A DNA stretch of 64,000 bases, from contig VGOO01000001.1 of assembly GCA_016875925.1 (NCBI GenBank), positions 2,162 through 66,161 on the forward strand, read 5' to 3'. Under the pieces are notes generated by a model, which was not told where the DNA came from, did not search any database, and worked only from the letters and a program-made list of their open reading frames with translations. The translations under genes and the position numbers were made by a program. Position 1 is the stretch's first letter, and every line of letters starts with the position of its first letter. Origin of the DNA: Chloroflexota bacterium (GTDB lineage Bacteria; Chloroflexota; Dehalococcoidia; GIF9; UBA5629). Positions 24,848 to 50,800 of the stretch are shown here, in pieces.

Positions 24848-24967
24848 CCCCCGGCGGTGGCATATTTTCCCAGAGAGCTGCCTCCCCAGTATCGTCTGCG
24901 CTGAGGCATTTCACTTCCGTGTTCGGGATGGGAACGGGTGGTACTACCTCGCTCTAACCACCAGAGG
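24848..24967 (-). rRNA. rrf: 5S ribosomal RNA, stand-alone copy
   Basis: Minus strand reads CCUCUGGUGGUUAGAGCGAGGUAGUACCACCCGUUCCCAUCCCGAACACGGAAGUGAAAUGCCUCAGCGCAGACGAUACUGGGG...CCACCGCCGGGGG. The universal CCGAAC...GAAGUGAAA loop-C/helix-III core is present and the 5' and 3' ends pair (helix I). A T-run follows the 3' end. Confidence 0.92.
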
Positions 24968-39739: not shown

Positions 39740-41158
39740 CTAAGGAGACGAACGACGCCTGGTCGGACTTTGCGACAATTTTGCGCGCCTAGCTGCTCCT
39801 CTATCGCCTCTGTAATCAGGCGCCATGATATTGAATACCAAACTAATACTGGGGTCCACCATCCTCGAGCTGATTCGATTCTCTATCTCGTCTAGCGAAA
39901 AGCAAGTAGTAATCACCGTGGCCAGCCTAGCATTATAACGATAGTTAATTAATTGATACAGCTTCTCCTGTGCCCAGGGAGTGGCAGATTGCTCGCCGAA
40001 ATCATCCAGAACCAGCACCTGAACTTGCTTAATCCGCTCAAAAAGCTCGTCATACGAAGTCTTGCTGTCCGGGCCGAATGTGGAACGGAGATGATCCAAT
40101 AAATCAGGCACCACGATAAAAAGAACAGGCTTACCTTCCTGCTTAAGATGATTGGCGATGGCAGCCGCCAGGTGAGTTTTCCCACAGCCGTTAGTACCTT
40201 GAAAAACAAGCCAGCCTTGAGGAGACCGAGCAAAATCAAGCGCCAGATGATAAGCCTGCTCCAAATTCTGCCGTTCTTCCGGCATAAGGTTCAATCGCCT
40301 GTAATCAAAATTTTTAAATGTCATCCTCCGTAGTAACTCCAGGTCTAGCCCACCAAGGTGAGATAAAGAAGACAAAATACTGCCAAGCATATACACTCTG
40401 CAAAACCCCACGTCTGTCAGATGTCCTCTAAGACTATCGCCAAAACCCTCTATTGGTACATCCGCAGTAATCACAGTAGCCAAACGAGCATTGAAACGAT
40501 AATCTAGCAATTGCTCCATCTTTCCCTTCGCCCAGCCAGTAGTCGTCGCCATATTCAGATCATCCAGAATTAGGATGGGAGTATTCTTAACTTGTTCAAA
40601 TAGCGCATCGTGGGTGATATTACTGTCGGGACTGAAAGCAGAGCGGAGATAGTCTAGCAAATCAGCAGCATTGATATAAAAAACAGGGCGTCCCAAGCCC
40701 AAGCAATGGTTAGCTATAGCACAAACTAAATGGGTCTTACCACTTCCTCCAGGTCCAATAAATACTAGCCAGCCGCTGGGGGCTTCGGCAAAGGCTTTAG
40801 CAGCATCATAGGCCTGACTGAAAAGTTCCTGCAAAGCAGGAGCACCTTGCAGCCCGGTTGGAGTCAGGTTCTCAAATGTCAAACGAGACAGGATGCCAAG
40901 ATTGCTCCTTTGCTGAAGCTGGTTGAGCTTCTCGCTTTTAAGCTCCTGCCGCCGGCATTTGCACGGTACCACGCGGCTAAAATCAGTTTTCCCTGACGGC
41001 AGAACAGGGTAAACTAAACCAGCCCCCTTGCACAGTAGACAGGCAGTAGTAGCCGAGTCTTCAGCCTGGTGCTCAGCGTCTGACCATGTGCCCGTATCTG
41101 CCCCTGACATATTTGGCAGAGTTGTTTTCTTTTTCAGAATCTCGCCTAGACTTTCCAT
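39740..41158 (-). CDS. Helicase-loader-like protein with N-terminal zinc module and two tandem DnaC/DnaI-type AAA+ modules
   Basis: CLLCKGAG...CKC, then module 1 (WLVFIGPGGSGKTHLVCAIANH, ILILDD, FNARLATVIT) and module 2 (WLVFQGTNGCGKTHLAAAIANH, VLVLDD, YNARLATVIT). Start favoured at the ATG at 41158 (GAGGG SD); the ATG at 41203 is also possible. Confidence 0.85.
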   Translation of the reverse strand: MESLGEILKKKTTLPNMSGADTGTWSDAEHQAEDSATTACLLCKGAGLVYPVLPSGKTDFSRVVPCKCRRQELKSEKLNQLQQRSNLGILSRLTFENLTPTGLQGAPALQELFSQAYDAAKAFAEAPSGWLVFIGPGGSGKTHLVCAIANHCLGLGRPVFYINAADLLDYLRSAFSPDSNITHDALFEQVKNTPILILDDLNMATTTGWAKGKMEQLLDYRFNARLATVITADVPIEGFGDSLRGHLTDVGFCRVYMLGSILSSLSHLGGLDLELLRRMTFKNFDYRRLNLMPEERQNLEQAYHLALDFARSPQGWLVFQGTNGCGKTHLAAAIANHLKQEGKPVLFIVVPDLLDHLRSTFGPDSKTSYDELFERIKQVQVLVLDDFGEQSATPWAQEKLYQLINYRYNARLATVITTCFSLDEIENRISSRMVDPSISLVFNIMAPDYRGDRGAARRAKLSQSPTRRRSSP

Positions 41159-41795
41159 CGAACTTACCCTCAGTGGCCCAACGCTCCAGAATGCGCGCAA
41201 CATACTTCCAGCTACGCTTATTAAGCCTGACTGCTTCCCGAAAGGCGCTCTCTATCCAATCATGCGGATACAGCTTCTCAGCCTCTCTCAATTCTTCAAC
41301 AATCATAGGTGTTAGTATGCCGATATTCTGCTCGTAAAGAATAAAAATGTTAGGTGGCGTAAAAGCATCACCAGCCTTCACTTTCCTAACTACGAAGTCG
41401 GACGATGGCATCTCGCCTCTTTCGACCTTAGCAACGATGTTCCTTTCAGTCTCCGCGTTTATCAAATAGATATCCTCATGCTCGCCATCTTGTTGTATCT
41501 CTAAATGAAGCAAGATTCCATGCTCAACGGCCAAGGTTAAGGCATGTTTAAGCACCTCTTCTCTTTGTTCAATACCCCTGGCTATTCCGTTCATAAGAAC
41601 AGAGTCAGCCAAAAGTTCCTCACTGGCTACAAAACGTGGGTAGCCGCGCCGGCGGCTTAACAACCACAGAATATGCAGCACTGTTTTCAACTCAGCAATA
41701 TCCTCAATGTTTGGCAGCACCATAGTAAAAAATTGATTAGGCACAGGAGTTACTTCAGCTTTTTCTACGAAGCCCATGAATGGTTTATCATACAT
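41073..41795 (-). CDS. DnaD-domain replication protein (DnaD/DnaB_2 family)
   Basis: LYEQNIG.LTP.I.EEL.EAEK.YP.DWI..AF.EAV..NKRSWKY...ILERW is the DnaD C-terminal domain signature. Sits between dnaB and the loader gene. Confidence 0.8.
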   Translation of the reverse strand: MYDKPFMGFVEKAEVTPVPNQFFTMVLPNIEDIAELKTVLHILWLLSRRRGYPRFVASEELLADSVLMNGIARGIEQREEVLKHALTLAVEHGILLHLEIQQDGEHEDIYLINAETERNIVAKVERGEMPSSDFVVRKVKAGDAFTPPNIFILYEQNIGILTPMIVEELREAEKLYPHDWIESAFREAVRLNKRSWKYVARILERWATEGKFDGKSRRDSEKENNSAKYVRGRYGHMVRR

Positions 41796-41818: not shown

Positions 41819-43210
41819 TCAGGCAGCGCTTACCTCGACTTCCAAATCTTCAAATTTGGTAATCGAAGAGACGAATCTCAATTTGCGCTCACCAGTAGGG
41901 CCATTCCTATGCTTGGCAATGATAATGTCAGCAATACCACGAGGATAGGGATTAGATTCAATATCATAGTTCTTTCTCCAGTCTTCCTCACGGATATACA
42001 TCTCATCTCGAGAGATAAAGATAACCACATCAGCATCTTGTTCAATGCTGCCACTGTCTCTTAGGTCAGATAACATAGGCTTGTGCGACATACGTTGTTC
42101 TACAGCGCGGCTCAACTGTGATAGTGCGATTACTGGCGCATTTATCTCGCGGGACAGCGCTTTCAAAGAACGTGTAATCTCGCTTAGCTCCTGAACCCGG
42201 TTATCCCTTCTCGACTCATCACGAATCAACTGAATATAGTCAACAACAATCAGATCAATAGGATGTTCAAAATGAAGTCGCTTTGCCTTGCCATGCATCT
42301 CCGCCATTCTCAATTGAGGTGAATCATCAATAAAAATACGTGCGTCAGCGAGTGCACCGCTAGCATCCATTACTTTTCTCTCTTCCGGTTCTGCATACTG
42401 GCCCAAACGGAGCTTGCCACAATCCACGCCGGATTCGCTAGCCAACAAGCGTCTCGCTATATCCTGCCGAGACATCTCCAAGCTAAATATAGCCACACAT
42501 GCTTTCTGATTTATAGCCGCGTTCCTGGCAATATTAAGGGCAAGGCTGGTTTTGCCTGAACTAGGTCTTGCACCGAGAATAATTAAGTCAGAGCGCTGTA
42601 AGCCTCCCAACAAATCATCTATTGCCGCAAAATTGGTGAGTATATGTGGTATCCTCTGCTCTTCCCTAGCAGGCAGCCCCGTGTCCTCAAAATATTCACC
42701 CAACACTTCTTTGAGAGAGACAAAGTAGCGCGGGCTTTGCTTGCGTAGAACTGCAAACAGAACGTCCTCTGCCCTAATTATCGCGTCATCAACATCAGAA
42801 TCAGCTCTATAGCCTATGGCCGCAATCTCCCCGGCAGCTTTTATCAACTGGCGCATCACATCGAGTCTCGATACGATGCGAGCATAGTATTCGATGTGCA
42901 AAGAAGTAGGTACAGAGGCGACCAGATGGCTCAGGTAGGCAGCTCCGCCAACATCCTCTAACTTATTCTGCTGCGCTAACTCACGGGCCACCGTTATCTG
43001 GTTTATCGCCTCAGGACGTTGGTACAACTTGAGGCAAACATCGTAGACCCACCGATGCTCCGGAATAAAAAAGGCCTCAGGTTTCAGAGAAGATGCGACT
43101 TTGAATATGGCATCACCGTCAACAAGGAGCGAACCTAGTACAGCCTTCTCCGCATCAACATCATGAGGCGGCAAGTTATCGCTATTCATTCTCGGTCCCT
43201 TCTTCGACAA
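41819..43210 (-). CDS. dnaB: Replicative DNA helicase DnaB
   Basis: [38 protein letters not shown] and ALSQLSR. Start may be the ATG at 43189. Confidence 0.96.
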
Positions 43211-43748: not shown

Positions 43749-44945
43749 TCAGCCTCTACCTATCAAGCCAGCAAACTCGGCTTTCACTTTAGCCAGAATC
43801 CTTGGTTCACTCATAAGATCAACAACCGTCATAGCCAGAGCTTTGGCTGCATCCAATACACCCTCACTAGCAGTCTCAGAAGCCGCAGCACGAGCAAACT
43901 CGTCTGAATGTAATAAAGTGCCTGGAGACGCAATGGCGATGGTAGGATGAATAGCGGGTACTACTTGACTGACATTGCCCATATCAGTGCTACCAAGACT
44001 ATTAGGAGCATCCAGTGGTTCCACCTTGCGCCCCAATACCTCCAGATTATTGGCAAAAATCTTAGCCAGTGTCCTATTGCTCTTCAATGGCTCATAGAGC
44101 ACATCACCCCATCTGCATGCTAGTCGTGCTCCAGTTGCCAATGCAGCCCCCTCTAAACAACCCAACACTCGCCGTTTTAACTCTTCGAGGTACGCATTAT
44201 CAGGAGCACGAACCAGTAACTTAGCAGCAGTGTAAGCTGGTACTACATTAGCAGCATGGCCGCCGTGCGTGATTATCCCGTGAATCCGAGCCTTCTCCTT
44301 AATATGCTGCCTCAGCGAGTTTATAGCATTGAAAGCCAAAATCATCGCCTCCAGAGCATTTACCCCCTGGTCAGGATACGCAGCAGCATGCGCCGCCTTG
44401 CCAAAGAACTCTATATCTAAATTGACACAAGCAAGTGCTTCACCAGTAGCCCTGTTTCGCACGCCAGGATGCACCATCAAAGCTACATCAACTCCTTCAA
44501 ATACACCAGCTCGCAACAAACCAACCTTGCCACCATGAAGCTCCTCCGCCGGAGTTCCAAAGACAATGACAGTACCGCCACAGTTGTCAACAACAACTCT
44601 GCTCGCCACGCCAGCTCCTACAGCGGCAGCAGCGATCACGTTATGTCCACAAGCATGGCCTACACCGGGAAGAGCATCATACTCTGCAAGCAAGGCAACG
44701 TAAGGTCCCCCCTCGCCATAAAATGCCTTAAAAGCAGTGGCAAACCCACCAATCCCTACCTCTACCACAAAGCCGTTGTTCCCAAGATAGTCGGTCAACC
44801 ATCCAATAGCCTTAACTTCTTCAAAGCCAAGCTCAGGATTAGCATGAATGCGAAGACTTAGCTCAACAAGCTCACCACGCTGCCTGTCCACCTGTTGACA
44901 AATTTTAGCCTTCAGATCAGCTTTCGACAATGTTTTCTTAGACAT
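43749..44945 (-). CDS. M20-family amidohydrolase/peptidase (M20D-like)
   Basis: IHANPELGFEE, ALLAEYDALPGVGHACGHN and GTPAEE metal-ligand motifs. Start at the ATG at 44945 (MSKKTL...). Confidence 0.85.
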   Translation of the reverse strand: MSKKTLSKADLKAKICQQVDRQRGELVELSLRIHANPELGFEEVKAIGWLTDYLGNNGFVVEVGIGGFATAFKAFYGEGGPYVALLAEYDALPGVGHACGHNVIAAAAVGAGVASRVVVDNCGGTVIVFGTPAEELHGGKVGLLRAGVFEGVDVALMVHPGVRNRATGEALACVNLDIEFFGKAAHAAAYPDQGVNALEAMILAFNAINSLRQHIKEKARIHGIITHGGHAANVVPAYTAAKLLVRAPDNAYLEELKRRVLGCLEGAALATGARLACRWGDVLYEPLKSNRTLAKIFANNLEVLGRKVEPLDAPNSLGSTDMGNVSQVVPAIHPTIAIASPGTLLHSDEFARAAASETASEGVLDAAKALAMTVVDLMSEPRILAKVKAEFAGLIGRG

Positions 44946-45048
44946 ATGGGATAAAGCCCTCGGCAGACTGCAATTATACTCTAACCACACCCCACGTTCT
45001 ACAACCCCCAGAAACCTAAAGCACCACAGTCAGCAAAAATTGTACAGC

Positions 45049-45078
45049 TTGACTTTCAAAAATACCGCAACTTATAAT
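45049..45078 (+). promoter_or_regulatory. Near-consensus sigma-70 promoter of the yceD-rpmF operon
   Basis: TTGACT-N18-TATAAT. It lies inside the ORF-track N-terminal extension, which argues for the downstream GTG start of yceD. Confidence 0.6.
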
Positions 45079-45108
45079 GACTCAACTTCACAGAAGGCTT
45101 TCAATAAA

Positions 45109-45582
45109 GTGCGAATAAACGTTGCGCAACTACTCAGAGCACCTATCGGGTCAAGTAGTAGCTACCAAGTCGATGACGCTGTTGGCAAAGAAGGAGCCAG
45201 ACACGTAAAGGGTGAGATAACACTCAGTCGTACTGGGCGCGGTATCATGGTCAAGGCAACAATAACAGCCTACACAACAGATATTTGCAGTCGCTGCCTT
45301 AATCCCGCAGATTACGCACTCAAGTTTGACGTAGCGGAAGAATTTCTCCCCCGTGATGCTGTTTCAGCCGGCATGTTCCGACAAGAAAATCTCGACACCT
45401 CGACTATCATCGACGAAGATAACGTGCTAGATTTAAGTGAAGTCATTCGCCAATACACATTATTAGCCACACCCACCAAGCCGCTCTGTAAACCAGAGTG
45501 CGCCGGGCTCTGTCCTGCCTGTGGCCACGAGCTAAACAATGAACCGTGCGAATGTCCATCCCAGATTAGTGTCAACCGATAG
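45109..45582 (+). CDS. yceD: YceD-family (DUF177) protein
   Basis: The C-terminal C.P.C.GLCP.CG..LN...C.C motif and its position directly upstream of rpmF are family hallmarks. GTG start at 45109 chosen because of the promoter position. Confidence 0.8.
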   Translation: MRINVAQLLRAPIGSSSSYQVDDAVGKEGARHVKGEITLSRTGRGIMVKATITAYTTDICSRCLNPADYALKFDVAEEFLPRDAVSAGMFRQENLDTSTIIDEDNVLDLSEVIRQYTLLATPTKPLCKPECAGLCPACGHELNNEPCECPSQISVNR

Positions 45583-45620
45583 CGAAAACAAGTACATCTC
45601 GGAAAGGAGAATAGTTTTTA

Positions 45621-45821
45621 ATGGCACCGCTCCCCAAAAAAAAATATCCTAAGGCCAGACAAGGCAAAAGACGTAGCCACCTAGGGGTCAAAGTACCTGC
45701 ACTTGCGAATTGCCCACAGTGCCACAATCCCAAACTACCTCATCGTGTATGTCCCACCTGTGGGAGTTACAATGGACGTGAAGTGATTGAGATAGCTACT
45801 CCCAAGAAAAGCCAGTCTTAA
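45621..45821 (+). CDS. rpmF: 50S ribosomal protein L32
   Basis: MAPLPKKKYPKARQGKRRSH...CP.C......HRVCP.CG.Y. Confidence 0.95.
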   Translation: MAPLPKKKYPKARQGKRRSHLGVKVPALANCPQCHNPKLPHRVCPTCGSYNGREVIEIATPKKSQS

Positions 45822-45916
45822 ATACCCAAGAAAAAAGCGCTGTTATCAGCAGGCAAATTTAGCAGACACAGAGAAATTGTTGAGATATCTACAAAACTTG
45901 GGTTAGAGGAGGAAAC

Positions 45917-46861
45917 ATGGTTGAAGAAATAAAGGCCGCTTATGTTTTCCCGGGACAAGATTCGCTAACAGTAGGTATGGGCTTGGACCTCTACGTCCAT
46001 TATTCTTCGGCCCGTGAAGTATTTGATGAAGTCGATAAGACTCTAGGCTTCTCGCTATCCCGTCTCTGTTTCGAGGGCCCTGAGGAAGATTTAAGACAGA
46101 CCGCGAACGCTCAGCCTGCAGTAGTAACGACTAGCGTCGCATGCCTTAAGGCGGCCCAAGAAGCCAGCCAGAACGGCCTACCAACTCCCATGTTTGTGGC
46201 TGGCCACGGAGTAGGCGCCTACTCCGCTTTGGTAGCCGCCGAAGTTCTGGGTCTATCTGACGCAGTTCGCCTCGTCCGCGAGAGGGGACGGCTGATGAAC
46301 GAGGCCGGACAGAGAACTCCTGGTGGTATGCTGTCCATGAGTGGGCTGAACGTAGAGACGGTAAGAGATATCTGCCTATCCACTGGTTCAGAGATAGCTT
46401 ACATAGATGCCGCAGACCAGGTCACTATTAGCGGCACACAGGACAGCCTCACGAAGGCAAGAAGACTGGCCCAAATAAAAGGTGCCCGACGCATACTGCC
46501 ACTGAAAGTCACTGGTCCTTTCTATTCTTCGCTGATGGAGCCATCATTGGGGAGATTAAGAAACGCCATTTCGGGATTCACCTTCAACAAGCCAACAGTG
46601 CCTGTCATGGCTAACGTCACAGCACAAGCACTCACAGACCTAGAGGCAATCAAGGAGGAGTTGGTTAGCCAGGTAGTACACACTATCATGTGGCTTCAAA
46701 CCGTCGAAAACATGATTGCCAGAGGCGTTACCACCTTTTTCGAGATGGGCCCTGGAGAGGAACTTTCCAAGGTGATTAAGAGAATCAGCCCGGGAGCCCA
46801 AACATTCAATATCAGCACAGCGCAAACCGTTACTGAAATAACAAGGTGGCGCAAAGGCTAA
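45917..46861 (+). CDS. FabD-like (malonyl-CoA:ACP transacylase fold) protein lacking the catalytic Ser and His
   Basis: Full-length similarity to FabD (FPGQ.S.TVGM, AGH..G.YSALV, DAVRLV..RG..M, FEMGPG), but GHSLG reads GHGVG and PSH reads PFY. Strong SD GAGGAGG upstream. Confidence 0.8.
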   Translation: MVEEIKAAYVFPGQDSLTVGMGLDLYVHYSSAREVFDEVDKTLGFSLSRLCFEGPEEDLRQTANAQPAVVTTSVACLKAAQEASQNGLPTPMFVAGHGVGAYSALVAAEVLGLSDAVRLVRERGRLMNEAGQRTPGGMLSMSGLNVETVRDICLSTGSEIAYIDAADQVTISGTQDSLTKARRLAQIKGARRILPLKVTGPFYSSLMEPSLGRLRNAISGFTFNKPTVPVMANVTAQALTDLEAIKEELVSQVVHTIMWLQTVENMIARGVTTFFEMGPGEELSKVIKRISPGAQTFNISTAQTVTEITRWRKG

Positions 46862-47097
46862 CTATCACGTAGCAAAATAACTAACCACGCTTGTTGCAGA
46901 GCACCACTTAGCATCACGTCGCTTTATAATGACCTGACCCGTTAGCGCCACTCCCTAACCGGGGCTCACAGTCTTCTAAACCACCGTTCCCATGGCAGGA
47001 AATAGTTCCCGCCAAATCATGGCAGCGCTATAATATCGCCAGGACAGATTAAATCAAGTATCCGGACGCCTATAGACAAATTAGCCAGAAAGCAAAC

Positions 47098-47577
47098 ATG
47101 GGAAGCACAGGACTAAGGCGAAAGGCCAGGGTTGTGGCCCTGCAAACACTGTATGAAGCAGATTGCTCCATGCACGCTCCCGAAGCAATCCTGAACCGCT
47201 TGCTTGTAGAGAAAAACCTGCCAAGCGAAGCATCTGACTTTAGCAAGAGACTGGTCTCTGGAGTCCTTCAAAATAAGCAGGAGGTAGATTCCATCATCCA
47301 GTACTTTGCCCCTGCCTTTCCATTAGAACAAATTGCAGTCATCGACAGGAACATCCTGCGCCTTGCCATTTTCGAAATTTTATTCGATAATAATGCTCCG
47401 GTTAAGGTAGCTATCAACGAAGCAGTGGAGTTGGCAAAGAATTACGGCGGAGATGCCTCCTCCAAGTTGGTGAATGGAGTACTAGGCGCAATAGTAGCGA
47501 ACCACACAAAACATGAAAGACTCCGACAGGAAGACAAGAGATATAACATAAAAGGGACTTCACAAGCTAAGGATTAG
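47098..47577 (+). CDS. nusB: Transcription antitermination factor NusB
   Basis: [14 protein letters not shown]..., [21 protein letters not shown] and [11 protein letters not shown]......FVNGVL. Confidence 0.93.
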
Positions 47578-47838
47578 ATGATGGCAACCATTCTGCAACG
47601 TCTTAAAAAGGTCATCTCCGAACAACTCGGGGTAGACGAAGACCCCATTGAGCCATCAGCCTCTTTTGTTGAGGACCTCAACGTCGACCCTGAGGACCTG
47701 GCTGAGCTTATCACAGCAGTAGAAGAACAATTCAGCACACGTGACAGAAAATTAGAGATAGCCGATGAAGACATCGAGGAAATCGTTACCGTGCAGGACC
47801 TTATCGATTGCCTTCATGATTATGGCATAGAAGACTAG
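47578..47838 (+). CDS. Acyl-carrier-protein-like protein lacking the phosphopantetheine-attachment serine
   Basis: 86 aa. Ungapped match to the ACP core (ASFVEDL..D..D..EL..A.EE.F), but the DSL serine is proline: DPE. Confidence 0.8.
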   Translation: MMATILQRLKKVISEQLGVDEDPIEPSASFVEDLNVDPEDLAELITAVEEQFSTRDRKLEIADEDIEEIVTVQDLIDCLHDYGIED

Positions 47839-50800
47839 CCACCCGCTGCAATTTCCCCCTTGTCAGACCTGACCGATTCCATAGCCATCTTATTAAGAAC
47901 GCATTTCAGCGCTTCTTGCCACCCATTACCCATGCACTCAATATCCAGCCTTATCTGACGACTTCTCGCTTTAATTCCATCACCGCAGGCATCAAAGGAT
48001 AGTCTCTTGTCCAATGCTTTTGTTGCAGCGAGATACAACACAATGTTCTTGCCCTCTGTCACAACAGACTCTATTCCCACGCCTGCAGCTAAGAGTCGAA
48101 TTTCGACTATATAAAGCAAATCTCTCAAGTGTTGGGGTATCTTACCAAACCTATCACGCATCTCCCTGATTATTTCCCACACTTGCTCTACTGTCCTAAC
48201 AGCAACCAATCGCTGGTAGAAGGAGATTCTGATACTAGGTAAAGAGATATAATCCTCAGGGATATAGGCAGCTAGAGGTAGATTCGCAACTGGCATTGCT
48301 GGCAGGGCAACTCTTCTTTCCGCCAGGACACCGCGTTCTTGTCGCAATGTTTCCACCGCTTCAGCAAGCAGCCGACAATAGAGATCAAAACCAACAGTTG
48401 CGATATGACCACTCTGTTCTACCCCCAGCAGATTCCCAGCACCACGTATCTCAAGATCCCGCATTGCAATTCCGAATCCAGCACCCAGCTCCGCAGCCTC
48501 AGATATGGTTCTCAACCGTTTCCGAGCCTCAAGAGTCAATTGCTTACCTCTATCAAACAAGAAATAGGCATGCGCATGGTTACTGCCACGCCCTACGCGT
48601 CCACGCAGTTGATAGAGCTGGGCCAAGCCGAGTTTATCTGCCTGGTCAACAACCAACGTGTTCACATTAGGCATATCTAACCCCGATTCGATAATCGTCG
48701 TAGTAACCAAGACATCGTTCCGGCGGCTACTGAATTCCGCCATCACTTCAGCCAACTTTTTTTCATCCATTTGCCCGTGTGCTACTGATACCCCTGCTTC
48801 AGGCACCAAGATTTTCAGTTTATTAGCAACCGCAGCGATGCTCTGGACTCGGTTGTGAACATAAAAGACCTGGCCACTGCGTTCCAACTCTCTCAAAATC
48901 GCCCCGCGAACCAGCTTGTCATCGTAAACACCAACATGAGTTTTGATTGGCAGTCTCTCCTCCGGCGGTGTCTCAATGGTACTCATGTCCCGAATCCCAG
49001 CTAAAGACATATGAAGAGTTCTTGGGATAGGTGTCGCACTTAAAGTTAGAACATCTACCTCCTGTCTCAATTTCCTAAAATGCTCTTTGTGTACCACACC
49101 AAAACGTTGCTCCTCATCTATTATCACCAGGCCAAGATCCTTGAACCTGACATCCTTCTGTAATAGACGATGAGTGCCAATACAAATATCGATCATTCCT
49201 ACAGCCAGGCCAGCGATTATATCTGCTTGCTCTTTTTCGGTGCAAAAGCGACTCAGCATCGCCAGACGCACCGGAAAGGCTTGAAGCCTTTCACCAAATG
49301 TGAAGAGATGCTGCTGCGCCAGCACCGTAGTCGGCACGAGAAAAGCCACCTGCTTGCCATCCATTATTGCTTTGAAGGCAGCGCGAAGCGCCACTTCAGT
49401 TTTACCATAACCCACATCGCCACATATCAGTCTGTCCATGGGCCTTGGCTTCTCCATGTCAGCCTTCACAGCTTGCACAGCTTCCAGTTGGTCAGAAGTC
49501 TCCACATATGGAAAGGAGGATTCCAGCTCTTGCTGCCACAGGTTATCGGCAGAAAAACCGAAGCCCTCTGTCACCTCTCTTCTGGCATAAAGATTTAGAA
49601 GCTCCTCAGCCATATTTGCTGCTGCTTCCTTAACTCGCTGCTTTGCACGTGCCCATTCCTGGGTTCCTAAACGGCTCAGCGCAGGTACCCGGTCATCAGC
49701 ACCCACATACCGGCCGACACGGTCGACCTGCTCCGTGGGTACATACAGCTTATCGCCAAGAGCATATTCCAGAACAAGATATTCCCTCTCCACACCCTCC
49801 GTAGGCATTCTAGTCAATCCCAAGAATTGGGCAATACCATGCTCAACATGAACAACGTAATCACCGGGCAGCAAATCAGAAATAAACCTGTGATAGCGGA
49901 CCGGCCTCTTGCGAGGCAAGCGTCTCTCCTTCACCAAGCCGAAAATTTCTTTATCGGTAAGCAAGGTTAAACTATCCTTGATAGACCAGCCCTCAGCCAT
50001 TGACCCTTGAACAATTGTCACGGATTTCTGAGAAGGGATACGCTCTATAGAAGATACGTGTTGAACTAAAACATCCTCGTCCTGAAGCAGCTCGGCAAGC
50101 CGCTTTGCCTGCTGGCTGACTATGACAACTCGACGATTCTCATTTAGCATCACCCTTAGACCAGCCATAAAATTGTCTAGCCTGCCCCCATAGCCGGGCG
50201 CAGGTTTTAGAGGCAGAGATGCATAGCTTGTATCTCCAGACCCTTGGACATCCCATGAGCACAGCATTAGACGTCGCTCAAATCTCCGAAGCCCGGTCTC
50301 GAAATCAGCCAAGATAGAGGAGCAGACCAGACAAGAGCCACCCTGCTCCCGATGGAATTCCTCTAGCTCACTTTCCAGCTTGGTAATAACAGCCCGCATC
50401 TCATCAAGATCATCTGTGACTAAAAGAGAATTCCCAGGCAAATAACCAAGGATGGTGCTGGTGCTCTGCCATATGCCCATCTCACAAACCGGCACTATAG
50501 TTACCGATGCTACCAATGCTGACGAGCGTTGCGTCTGCGGGTCAAACAGCCTGATGCTTTCTATCTGATTCCCCGAAAACTCAATCCTGGCAGGCAAGTC
50601 ATTGTTCGGAGAAAAAATATCGACTATGCCACCGCGTCGGCCCATTGTCCCAGGCACTTCAACTATGTTTTCCAACTCATAGCCCATATCCTGCCAGCGC
50701 CTTATTAGCTGCGCCGGCTCAAGAGCCATTCTCACCTTGAGGTCGTGAGAGGCTGCAACAAAGCCAGCTCTAGGCAACGTCTTGCTGACTGCTGCTAAGG

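Follow-up and report, generated by a model that had tools for sequence, protein, structure and literature searches.

The gene at positions 45,917 to 46,861 of a 64,000-nucleotide stretch of the Chloroflexota bacterium contig VGOO01000001.1 (the window, by which we mean the whole of this stretch) encodes a homologue of the malonyl-CoA:acyl carrier protein (ACP) transacylase FabD in which both catalytic residues, the serine and the histidine, have been replaced. We denote this protein FabD*. The ACP homologue encoded nearby, denoted ACPx, has no serine at the position where phosphopantetheine is attached. The lost catalytic residues are a family trait, not a lesion, and both proteins are under strong purifying selection. 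From the sequence comparisons described here, we consider it probable that the displaced FabD*–ACPx pair has been kept as a non-catalytic binding module with a purpose other than acyl transfer. The features concerned are the following.

45917..46861, + strand: FabD*, malonyl-CoA:ACP transacylase homologue, 314 amino acids, ATG start (open reading frame, profiles and alignment).
45906..45912, + strand: Shine–Dalgarno-like GAGGAGG, 4 nt before the FabD* ATG (read from the sequence).
46208..46210, + strand: GGA codon of Gly98, at the position of E. coli Ser92 (alignment to 1MLA).
46523..46525, + strand: TAT codon of Tyr203, at the position of E. coli His201 (alignment to 1MLA).
47098..47577, + strand: nusB, between FabD* and ACPx (profile match).
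47578..47838, + strand: ACPx, ACP homologue of 86 amino acids (PF00550, NF002148).

FabD* matches the Pfam profile Acyl_transf_1 with 94.9 bits and, over its full length, the fabD profile TIGR00128 with 273 bits (cut-off 260.9). Residues 7–291 align end to end with residues 4–289 of E. coli FabD (1MLA; E=1.4e-56, ~36% identical), and all residue equivalences given here are read from this alignment. The description of the gene in the original prediction as an intact 314-residue FabD homologue behind a strong Shine–Dalgarno sequence is thus correct. Malonyl transfer by FabD follows a ping-pong mechanism via malonyl-O-Ser92, with His201 activating the serine and Arg117 holding the carboxylate. 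The nucleophile elbow in FabD* is GHGVG, with Ser92 replaced by G98, Leu93 by V99 and Glu95 by A101. The general base His201 is Y203, and the GQGSQ motif becomes GQDSL (Gly12 to D15, Gln14 to L17). With neither Ser nor His at the catalytic positions of the alignment, and hence no serine nucleophile, the malonyl-enzyme intermediate would not be able to form. Gln11 (Q14), Gln63 (Q66), Gln250 (Q252) and the malonyl-carboxylate-binding Arg117 (R123) are unchanged. Of the residues that dock the carrier protein, Lys189/Arg190 have their equivalents in R191/R192 and Lys286/Arg287 in K288/R289. Three of the four changes originally claimed (GQGSQ, Ser92 and His201) therefore stand, as does the retention of Arg117. 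The fourth, Gln250 to Met, was a numbering error; M258 of FabD* pairs with E. coli Q256, a position that varies in canonical FabDs too.

The ACP homologue directly after nusB had been overlooked; the window was said to hold none of the usual fab partners. ACPx scores 39 bits with PF00550 (cut-off 20.8) and 74.5 bits with NF002148 (cut-off 71); with TIGR00517 it scores 62.2 bits, under the cut-off of 70.45. The phosphopantetheine-attachment residue, Ser36 of E. coli AcpP, is Pro38 (CCT, 47689–47691). The surrounding motif reads DLNVDPEDL in place of DLGADSLDL, so that D-S-L becomes D-P-E. Among the 120 best ACPx homologues this position is Pro in 98, Ala in 10, Leu in 5, Ser in 5, Asn in 1 and Gln in 1; Ser is missing in 115, and Gly also occurs in the family. 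No conserved Ser is found close to the attachment position across the ACPx family. Judging from these residues, ACPx could not be loaded with phosphopantetheine at the canonical site. The ACPx ATG follows immediately on the stop codon of nusB (TAG-ATGATG, 47575–47583), and ACPx is called as 86 or 85 amino acids depending on the gene caller. An AAGGA within the end of nusB is a possible ribosome-binding site for ACPx and would imply translational coupling of the two genes.

In the databases, the best 120 homologues of FabD* share 70–96% identity with it, and nearly all have 314 amino acids. Those named come from Chloroflexota/Dehalococcoidia metagenome-assembled genomes and carry the label ACP S-malonyltransferase. 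A single 75%-identical sequence (P0080) is labelled 'Candidatus Bathyarchaeia archaeon' in NCBI; it probably lies on a mis-binned contig, since the distribution of FabD* is otherwise exclusively Dehalococcoidia. Pooling the 120 with 80 species-level GTDB loci (numbered with the prefix L) gave 164 distinct dead FabDs. Position 98 is Asp in 105 and Gly in 59 of these, and position 203 is Asn in 89, Tyr in 54, His in 20 and Ser in 1. Position 15 is acidic in 158 (Glu 148, Asp 10). R123, Q252 and R192 are invariant, and Q14, Q66 and K288 nearly so. Positions 99, 101 and 17, which never vary in canonical FabDs, rank 16th, 23rd and 19th most variable of the 314 in the dead clade. Overall the clade has 58 invariant positions and a mean column identity of 81–82%. 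The combinations found in nature at positions 15, 98 and 203 are G,S,H; E,S,H; E,G,H; E,G,Y; E,D,Y; and E,D,N, with the window protein of the D,G,Y type. The state of the enzyme goes with that of the carrier. In 65 locus pairs of FabD and ACPx, a dead FabD is accompanied by an ACPx without the serine in 54 of 54 loci, and a canonical FabD by an ACPx with the serine in 10 of 11.

Eight of the genomes bearing FabD* hold a second FabD homologue, 51–58% identical to the window protein, at a separate locus. We denote this canonical, live paralogue FabD2. On the 1.76-Mb chromosome CP070642.1, FabD2 has the motifs GQGSQ, GHSLGE and FHS and lies in a full fab cluster. The loci are as follows.

L061, 7189–14037 of CP070642.1: live cluster, in the order ACP (with DSL), FabF, AcpS, FabK, FabD, a member of the crotonase/enoyl-CoA hydratase family, PlsX, FabF.
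L008/L061, L017/L062, L059/L063, L023/L064, L013/L067, L024/L068, L014/L069 and L018/L070: locus pairs of the eight two-copy genomes.

In the L061 cluster the NCBIfam scores are above the cut-offs for both FabF proteins (578 and 562), FabK (458), FabD (329.3) and PlsX (326), and AcpS also passes. No fabH, fabG or fabZ lies inside the live clusters (L061, L062–L070), and the layout with FabK and a crotonase-family protein recalls the fabK/fabM arrangement of Streptococcus. In these relatives, the absence of plsX, fabF and acpS beside FabD* is accounted for by the canonical cluster at another locus. Among relatives with both copies UBA5620 (L013/L067) is the nearest, and it falls with the window in the neighbour-joining tree. 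The three marks of a pseudoenzyme (lost residues, a live second copy elsewhere in the genome, purifying selection) are found together in the relatives, in eight genomes.

Selection was measured as dN/dS (omega) by the Nei–Gojobori method. The orthologue at L002, 96% identical to FabD*, carries the same substitutions. The two genes differ by 84 synonymous and 12 nonsynonymous changes (omega 0.035), and the corresponding ACPx genes by 22 and 5 (omega 0.047). Comparison of the two paralogues across the eight two-copy genomes gave 28 genome pairs. In all 28 FabD* is more identical and has the lower dN, with a difference of about twofold. For the pairs with unsaturated dS, omega is 0.03–0.10 for FabD* and 0.07–0.18 for FabD2. 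In 12 of 15 pairs ACPx equals or exceeds the live ACP in conservation. The dead copy is thus the more constrained one, and purifying selection on both proteins is strong. The original prediction held that the substitutions were not the product of one recent lesion, and their occurrence and elaboration in the 164 homologues agree with this. In the orthologue comparison it proposed, dead FabDs share the lost serine, the frames are uninterrupted and dN/dS is purifying. The retained, non-catalytic role it favoured gains support from the family pattern, from the dN/dS of 0.035 and from the 28 pairs; that the role is non-catalytic is what the residues would lead us to infer.

The gene order DnaB–L9–(M20)–YceD–L32–FabD*–NusB–ACPx–Mfd recurs in ~60 species-level loci. 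In outgroups from distant Dehalococcoidia and Chloroflexia (L072, L074, L077 and L079), the order is yceD–rpmF–fabD–fabG–...–nusB–acpP, and fabD and acpP have canonical residues (GQGSQ, GHSLGE, FHS and DSL). A 5-residue insertion is common to ACPx and to those outgroup AcpPs that keep DSL. The outgroup order, the canonical residues and the common insertion together mark FabD* and ACPx as orthologues of the ancestral housekeeping pair, with fabG lost from between them. On these comparisons, the direct ancestors of FabD* and ACPx were the housekeeping fabD and acpP of the old operon, and the order fabD–(fabG)–nusB–acpP is ancestral in the lineage. By descent the two proteins are FabD and AcpP; measured by the catalytic features that define these families they are neither, and we do not file them as functional members of either family.

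Some loci show intermediate states. At L027, L029, L031 and L057 the order is yceD–rpmF–ACP–FabF–AcpS–FabK–FabD–nusB–ACPx, with a canonical FabD; the ACPx motif is DSA or DSS at these loci, with GPS in L027. At L033 a FabD with GQESY has Ser and His intact and is accompanied by an ACPx with DSA. Neighbour-joining trees were bootstrapped after deletion of the active-site columns. The dead FabDs and the canonical FabDs of the yceD locus (the L027 type) form one group with 100% bootstrap, and within it two dead subclades have 100% each. The branching among the dead subclades, L033 and the L027 type has 25–36% bootstrap, and one loss or two parallel losses both fit. An invariant C-terminal W-R-x-G and high overall similarity are common to the dead clade and the L027-type canonical FabDs; the outgroups and the relocated FabD2 have neither. 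These shared features suggest that the extra constraint is older than the loss of catalysis.

The following course of events would account for these data. In one clade of Dehalococcoidia, fatty-acid synthesis would have been taken over by the set of ACP, FabF, AcpS, FabK, FabD, crotonase-family protein, PlsX and FabF. The old fabD/acpP pair was retained and fabG deleted from the locus. In FabD* the serine that accepts the acyl group and the histidine base disappeared and an acidic residue arose at Gly12, and ACPx lost the phosphopantetheine-carrying serine, with purifying selection continuing on the rest of both proteins and acting on FabD* more strongly than on the live paralogue. Neither protein would participate in acyl transfer. 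Most likely FabD* and ACPx would bind each other stably and together serve as an adaptor or regulator. One candidate output of this complex is the sensing or sequestering of malonyl-CoA/CoA, or of ACP-binding partners (ACP-client enzymes), which would tune lipid synthesis; the other is a part in ribosome biogenesis, as played by human MCAT. Support for a ribosome role from the adjoining yceD, rpmF and nusB is weak, because this neighbourhood is ancestral to fab operons.

For the interface we used the contact list of the E. coli FabD–AcpP complex, in which ACP docks on FabD via Lys189/Arg190, Lys279 and Lys286/Arg287 (bioRxiv 10.1101/2020.05.15.098798). Two of the three docking patches are preserved in FabD* (R191/R192 and K288/R289), as are the ligand-contacting residues R123, Q14, Q66, R192 and R289. 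The third patch is remodelled, K279 becoming E/D together with G283 becoming K/R (Glu and Lys in the window). The hydrophobic contact between Ile136 and Leu37 of ACP has turned polar on both sides (I136 to T/S/M, Leu37 to P/S/E/D). The acidic helix II of ACPx is preserved. These preserved and remodelled sites are the basis for proposing a stable non-catalytic FabD*–ACPx module; they are weak evidence that the two proteins may still meet, in a modified, cofactor-free way.

Several points weigh against such a module. The canonical fab cluster is absent from the 64-kb window and from ~10 kb past either end, so the search originally suggested for a canonical fabD and its partners succeeded in the eight genomes of relatives (a full cluster, without fabH and fabG) and not in the sequence around the gene itself; for the window organism the cluster would have to be deduced from relatives only. 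The binding of FabD* to ACPx and the targets of the pair are predictions from sequence. AlphaFold2 models of FabD* are of modest quality, with pLDDT 65.7 from a 19-sequence alignment and 78.3 from 79 sequences. Foldseek with the latter model finds only FabD/MCAT folds (E=2.7e-24), with a TM of just ~0.54 and an rmsd of ~11 Å. The match to solved FabD structures at the level of sequence, by contrast, is unambiguous. In view of the modest models we make no argument at atomic level on the pocket or on a salt bridge between Glu/Asp15 and Arg123. Comparison of net charge and pI between dead and live FabDs revealed no basic shift that would point to RNA binding. Finally, Arg123, Gln14, Gln66 and Gln252 are invariant or nearly so, and together with the new Glu/Asp15 and the Asp98 of many members they could belong to an active site of a new kind.

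This last point leads to the main rival of the non-catalytic module, an acyltransferase fold whose active site has been rebuilt (Glu/Asp15, mostly Asp98, Asn/Tyr203, Arg123, Gln14 and Gln66) and which carries out another reaction on a malonyl or dicarboxyl thioester, for example its hydrolysis or decarboxylation, or a direct transfer that needs no covalent intermediate. The malonate/CoA-contacting residues that are invariant or nearly so, the nearly fixed acidic residue 15 (158/164), the Asp on the nucleophile elbow in 105/164 and the very strong constraint on the whole protein speak for such an enzyme. No constellation, however, occurs throughout the family: Gly98/Tyr203 in the window protein contrasts with Asp/Asn, Asp/Tyr or Gly/His in others, within 62–96% identity. 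Variability is comparatively high at the positions that once formed the active site, and the co-inherited ACPx appears unable to carry a substrate. We regard a new enzymatic reaction as unlikely. It is far more improbable that FabD* is still the malonyl transferase of the cell, working by an unusual mechanism in an organism with no other fabD. No second fabD occurs in the window or ~10 kb beyond, and the TIGR00128 cut-off is still passed, but the protein has no nucleophile whatever (Gly98) and no His, the adjacent ACP has no attachment Ser, and a canonical FabD stands in a full cluster in eight relatives with dead copies, one of them in the subclade of the window (L013/L067).

Plain decay, with a redundant copy drifting to loss after the second fab cluster took over, would explain the lost catalytic residues, the deletion of fabG from the locus and the drift at the former active-site positions. 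Against it, no frameshift or stop is found in FabD* across ~60 loci and 164 sequences, the length is nearly always 314 amino acids, 58 positions never vary within the dead clade, and omega is 0.03–0.10 with dN under that of the live paralogue in 28/28 comparisons. Decay is rejected on the low omega, the lower dN and the intact frames, and we find it hardly credible. That the motif codons are artefacts of sequencing or assembly has a negligible probability. The identical protein is present on 7 contigs from separate Lake Tanganyika assemblies, the same residues occur in the L002 orthologue at 84 synonymous differences, and the pattern is common to independent studies; nothing was found in favour of an artefact, which is likewise rejected.

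The order of genes in the window is yceD, rpmF, FabD*, nusB and ACPx, followed by mfd on the opposite strand. The two genes upstream of FabD* are the following.

45040/45109–45582, + strand: yceD, upstream anchor of the ancestral fab operon.
45621–45821, + strand: rpmF, upstream anchor of the ancestral fab operon.

The start of yceD is ambiguous; the longest open reading frame begins with TTG at 45040 (180 amino acids), and the JGI call on the identical contig is 157 amino acids (near 45109). In many relatives the gap between the fabD gene, dead or canonical, and nusB holds a gene for a radical SAM protein of 377–383 amino acids with the motif CSFDCLFCQNW (11062–12195 in L003, and at the same place in L004, L009, L014 and L027). 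The window has no radical SAM gene, and its gap between FabD* and nusB is 236 nt of non-coding sequence. A scan of 44900–48000 for promoters and terminators gave sites no more numerous than in shuffled sequence. Rfam applied to the whole window gave no match near the FabD* locus; its sole match is a complete 5S rRNA gene (24849–24965, − strand, 89.7 bits), which has no 23S or 16S gene adjoining and appears unlinked from the other rRNA genes. The 487-residue protein encoded at 39740–41203 (− strand) has two IstB/DnaC-like AAA+ stretches with the Walker A motifs GPGGSGKTH and GTNGCGKTH and looks like a tandem-duplicated helicase loader. Its gene adjoins those for a DnaD/DnaB_2-domain protein and the replicative helicase DnaB (41073–41795 and 41819–43210, both − strand).

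FabD* resembles bacterial FabD (TIGR00128; E. coli PDB 1MLA/2G2Z/6U0J) in its full-length homology, in the two-subdomain fold predicted from its sequence, with an alpha/beta-hydrolase-like core and a ferredoxin-like subdomain, and in its place after yceD–rpmF, the ancestral place of fabD. It differs in Ser92 to Gly, His201 to Tyr, Gly12 to Asp, Gln14 to Leu, Leu93 to Val, Glu95 to Ala, and K279 to Glu with G283 to Lys. ACPx has the four-helix ACP sequence pattern of canonical AcpP (TIGR00517/PF00550), its acidic helix II and the 5-residue insertion of the Dehalococcoidia type; it differs in the Pro at the DSL serine and lies below the TIGR00517 cut-off. Structural roles are familiar for mitochondrial ACP, which is a subunit of complex I and of the MALSU1–L0R8F8–mtACP module. 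FabD is normally monomeric. Human MCAT is a bona fide assembly factor of the mitoribosomal small subunit (PMC9892005). The likeness of the human MCAT and mtACP lies in FabD and ACP homologues holding a structural job outside fatty-acid synthesis (FAS), and the window genes lie among genes of the ribosome and of transcription, namely yceD, rpmF and nusB. MCAT, however, retains its catalytic residues, which FabD* does not, and mtACP needs acyl-phosphopantetheine to bind LYR proteins, whereas ACPx has no attachment Ser. The trypanosome prozymes of AdoMetDC and deoxyhypusine synthase are dead paralogues that heteromerise with the live enzyme (PMC5201418, PMC3663545). They share with FabD* the retention, under selection, of a catalytically dead copy beside a live one, but they have no co-retained dead carrier protein, as FabD* has in ACPx. 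The open-access texts searched describe no dead FabD or serine-less ACP in Dehalococcoidia or other bacteria; the pattern of a paired enzyme and carrier pseudo-protein module is robust and undescribed in that literature.

The names in use are misleading. FabD* passes the FabD equivalog cut-off, NCBI and JGI call the two proteins 'ACP S-malonyltransferase' and 'acyl carrier protein', and metabolic reconstructions of these widespread Dehalococcoidia consequently count non-functional parts. For evolution, the family offers a clean series found in nature: the chemical handles disappear from the enzyme and from its carrier substrate together, while the constraint stays above that on the live paralogue. 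The states run through S/H, G/H, G/Y, D/Y and D/N in FabD and DSL, DSA/DSS and DPx in the ACP, and the series fits subfunctionalisation of a moonlighting role. Going further, the ancestral FabD–AcpP pair might have been converted, co-evolving, into a catalytically inert complex whose important function lies elsewhere than in acyl transfer, for example in the biogenesis of ribosomes or in linking growth to lipid status. This would be the bacterial parallel to the moonlighting that MCAT and ACP show in mitochondria. We put this forward tentatively, as possible but short of probable; if true, the second function would already have been present in a bifunctional ancestor. The finding points to a non-FAS function of bacterial FabD and ACP, known in the mitochondrial homologues and poorly defined in bacteria. 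In the FabD*–ACPx pair this function would be separated from catalysis and could be studied alone.

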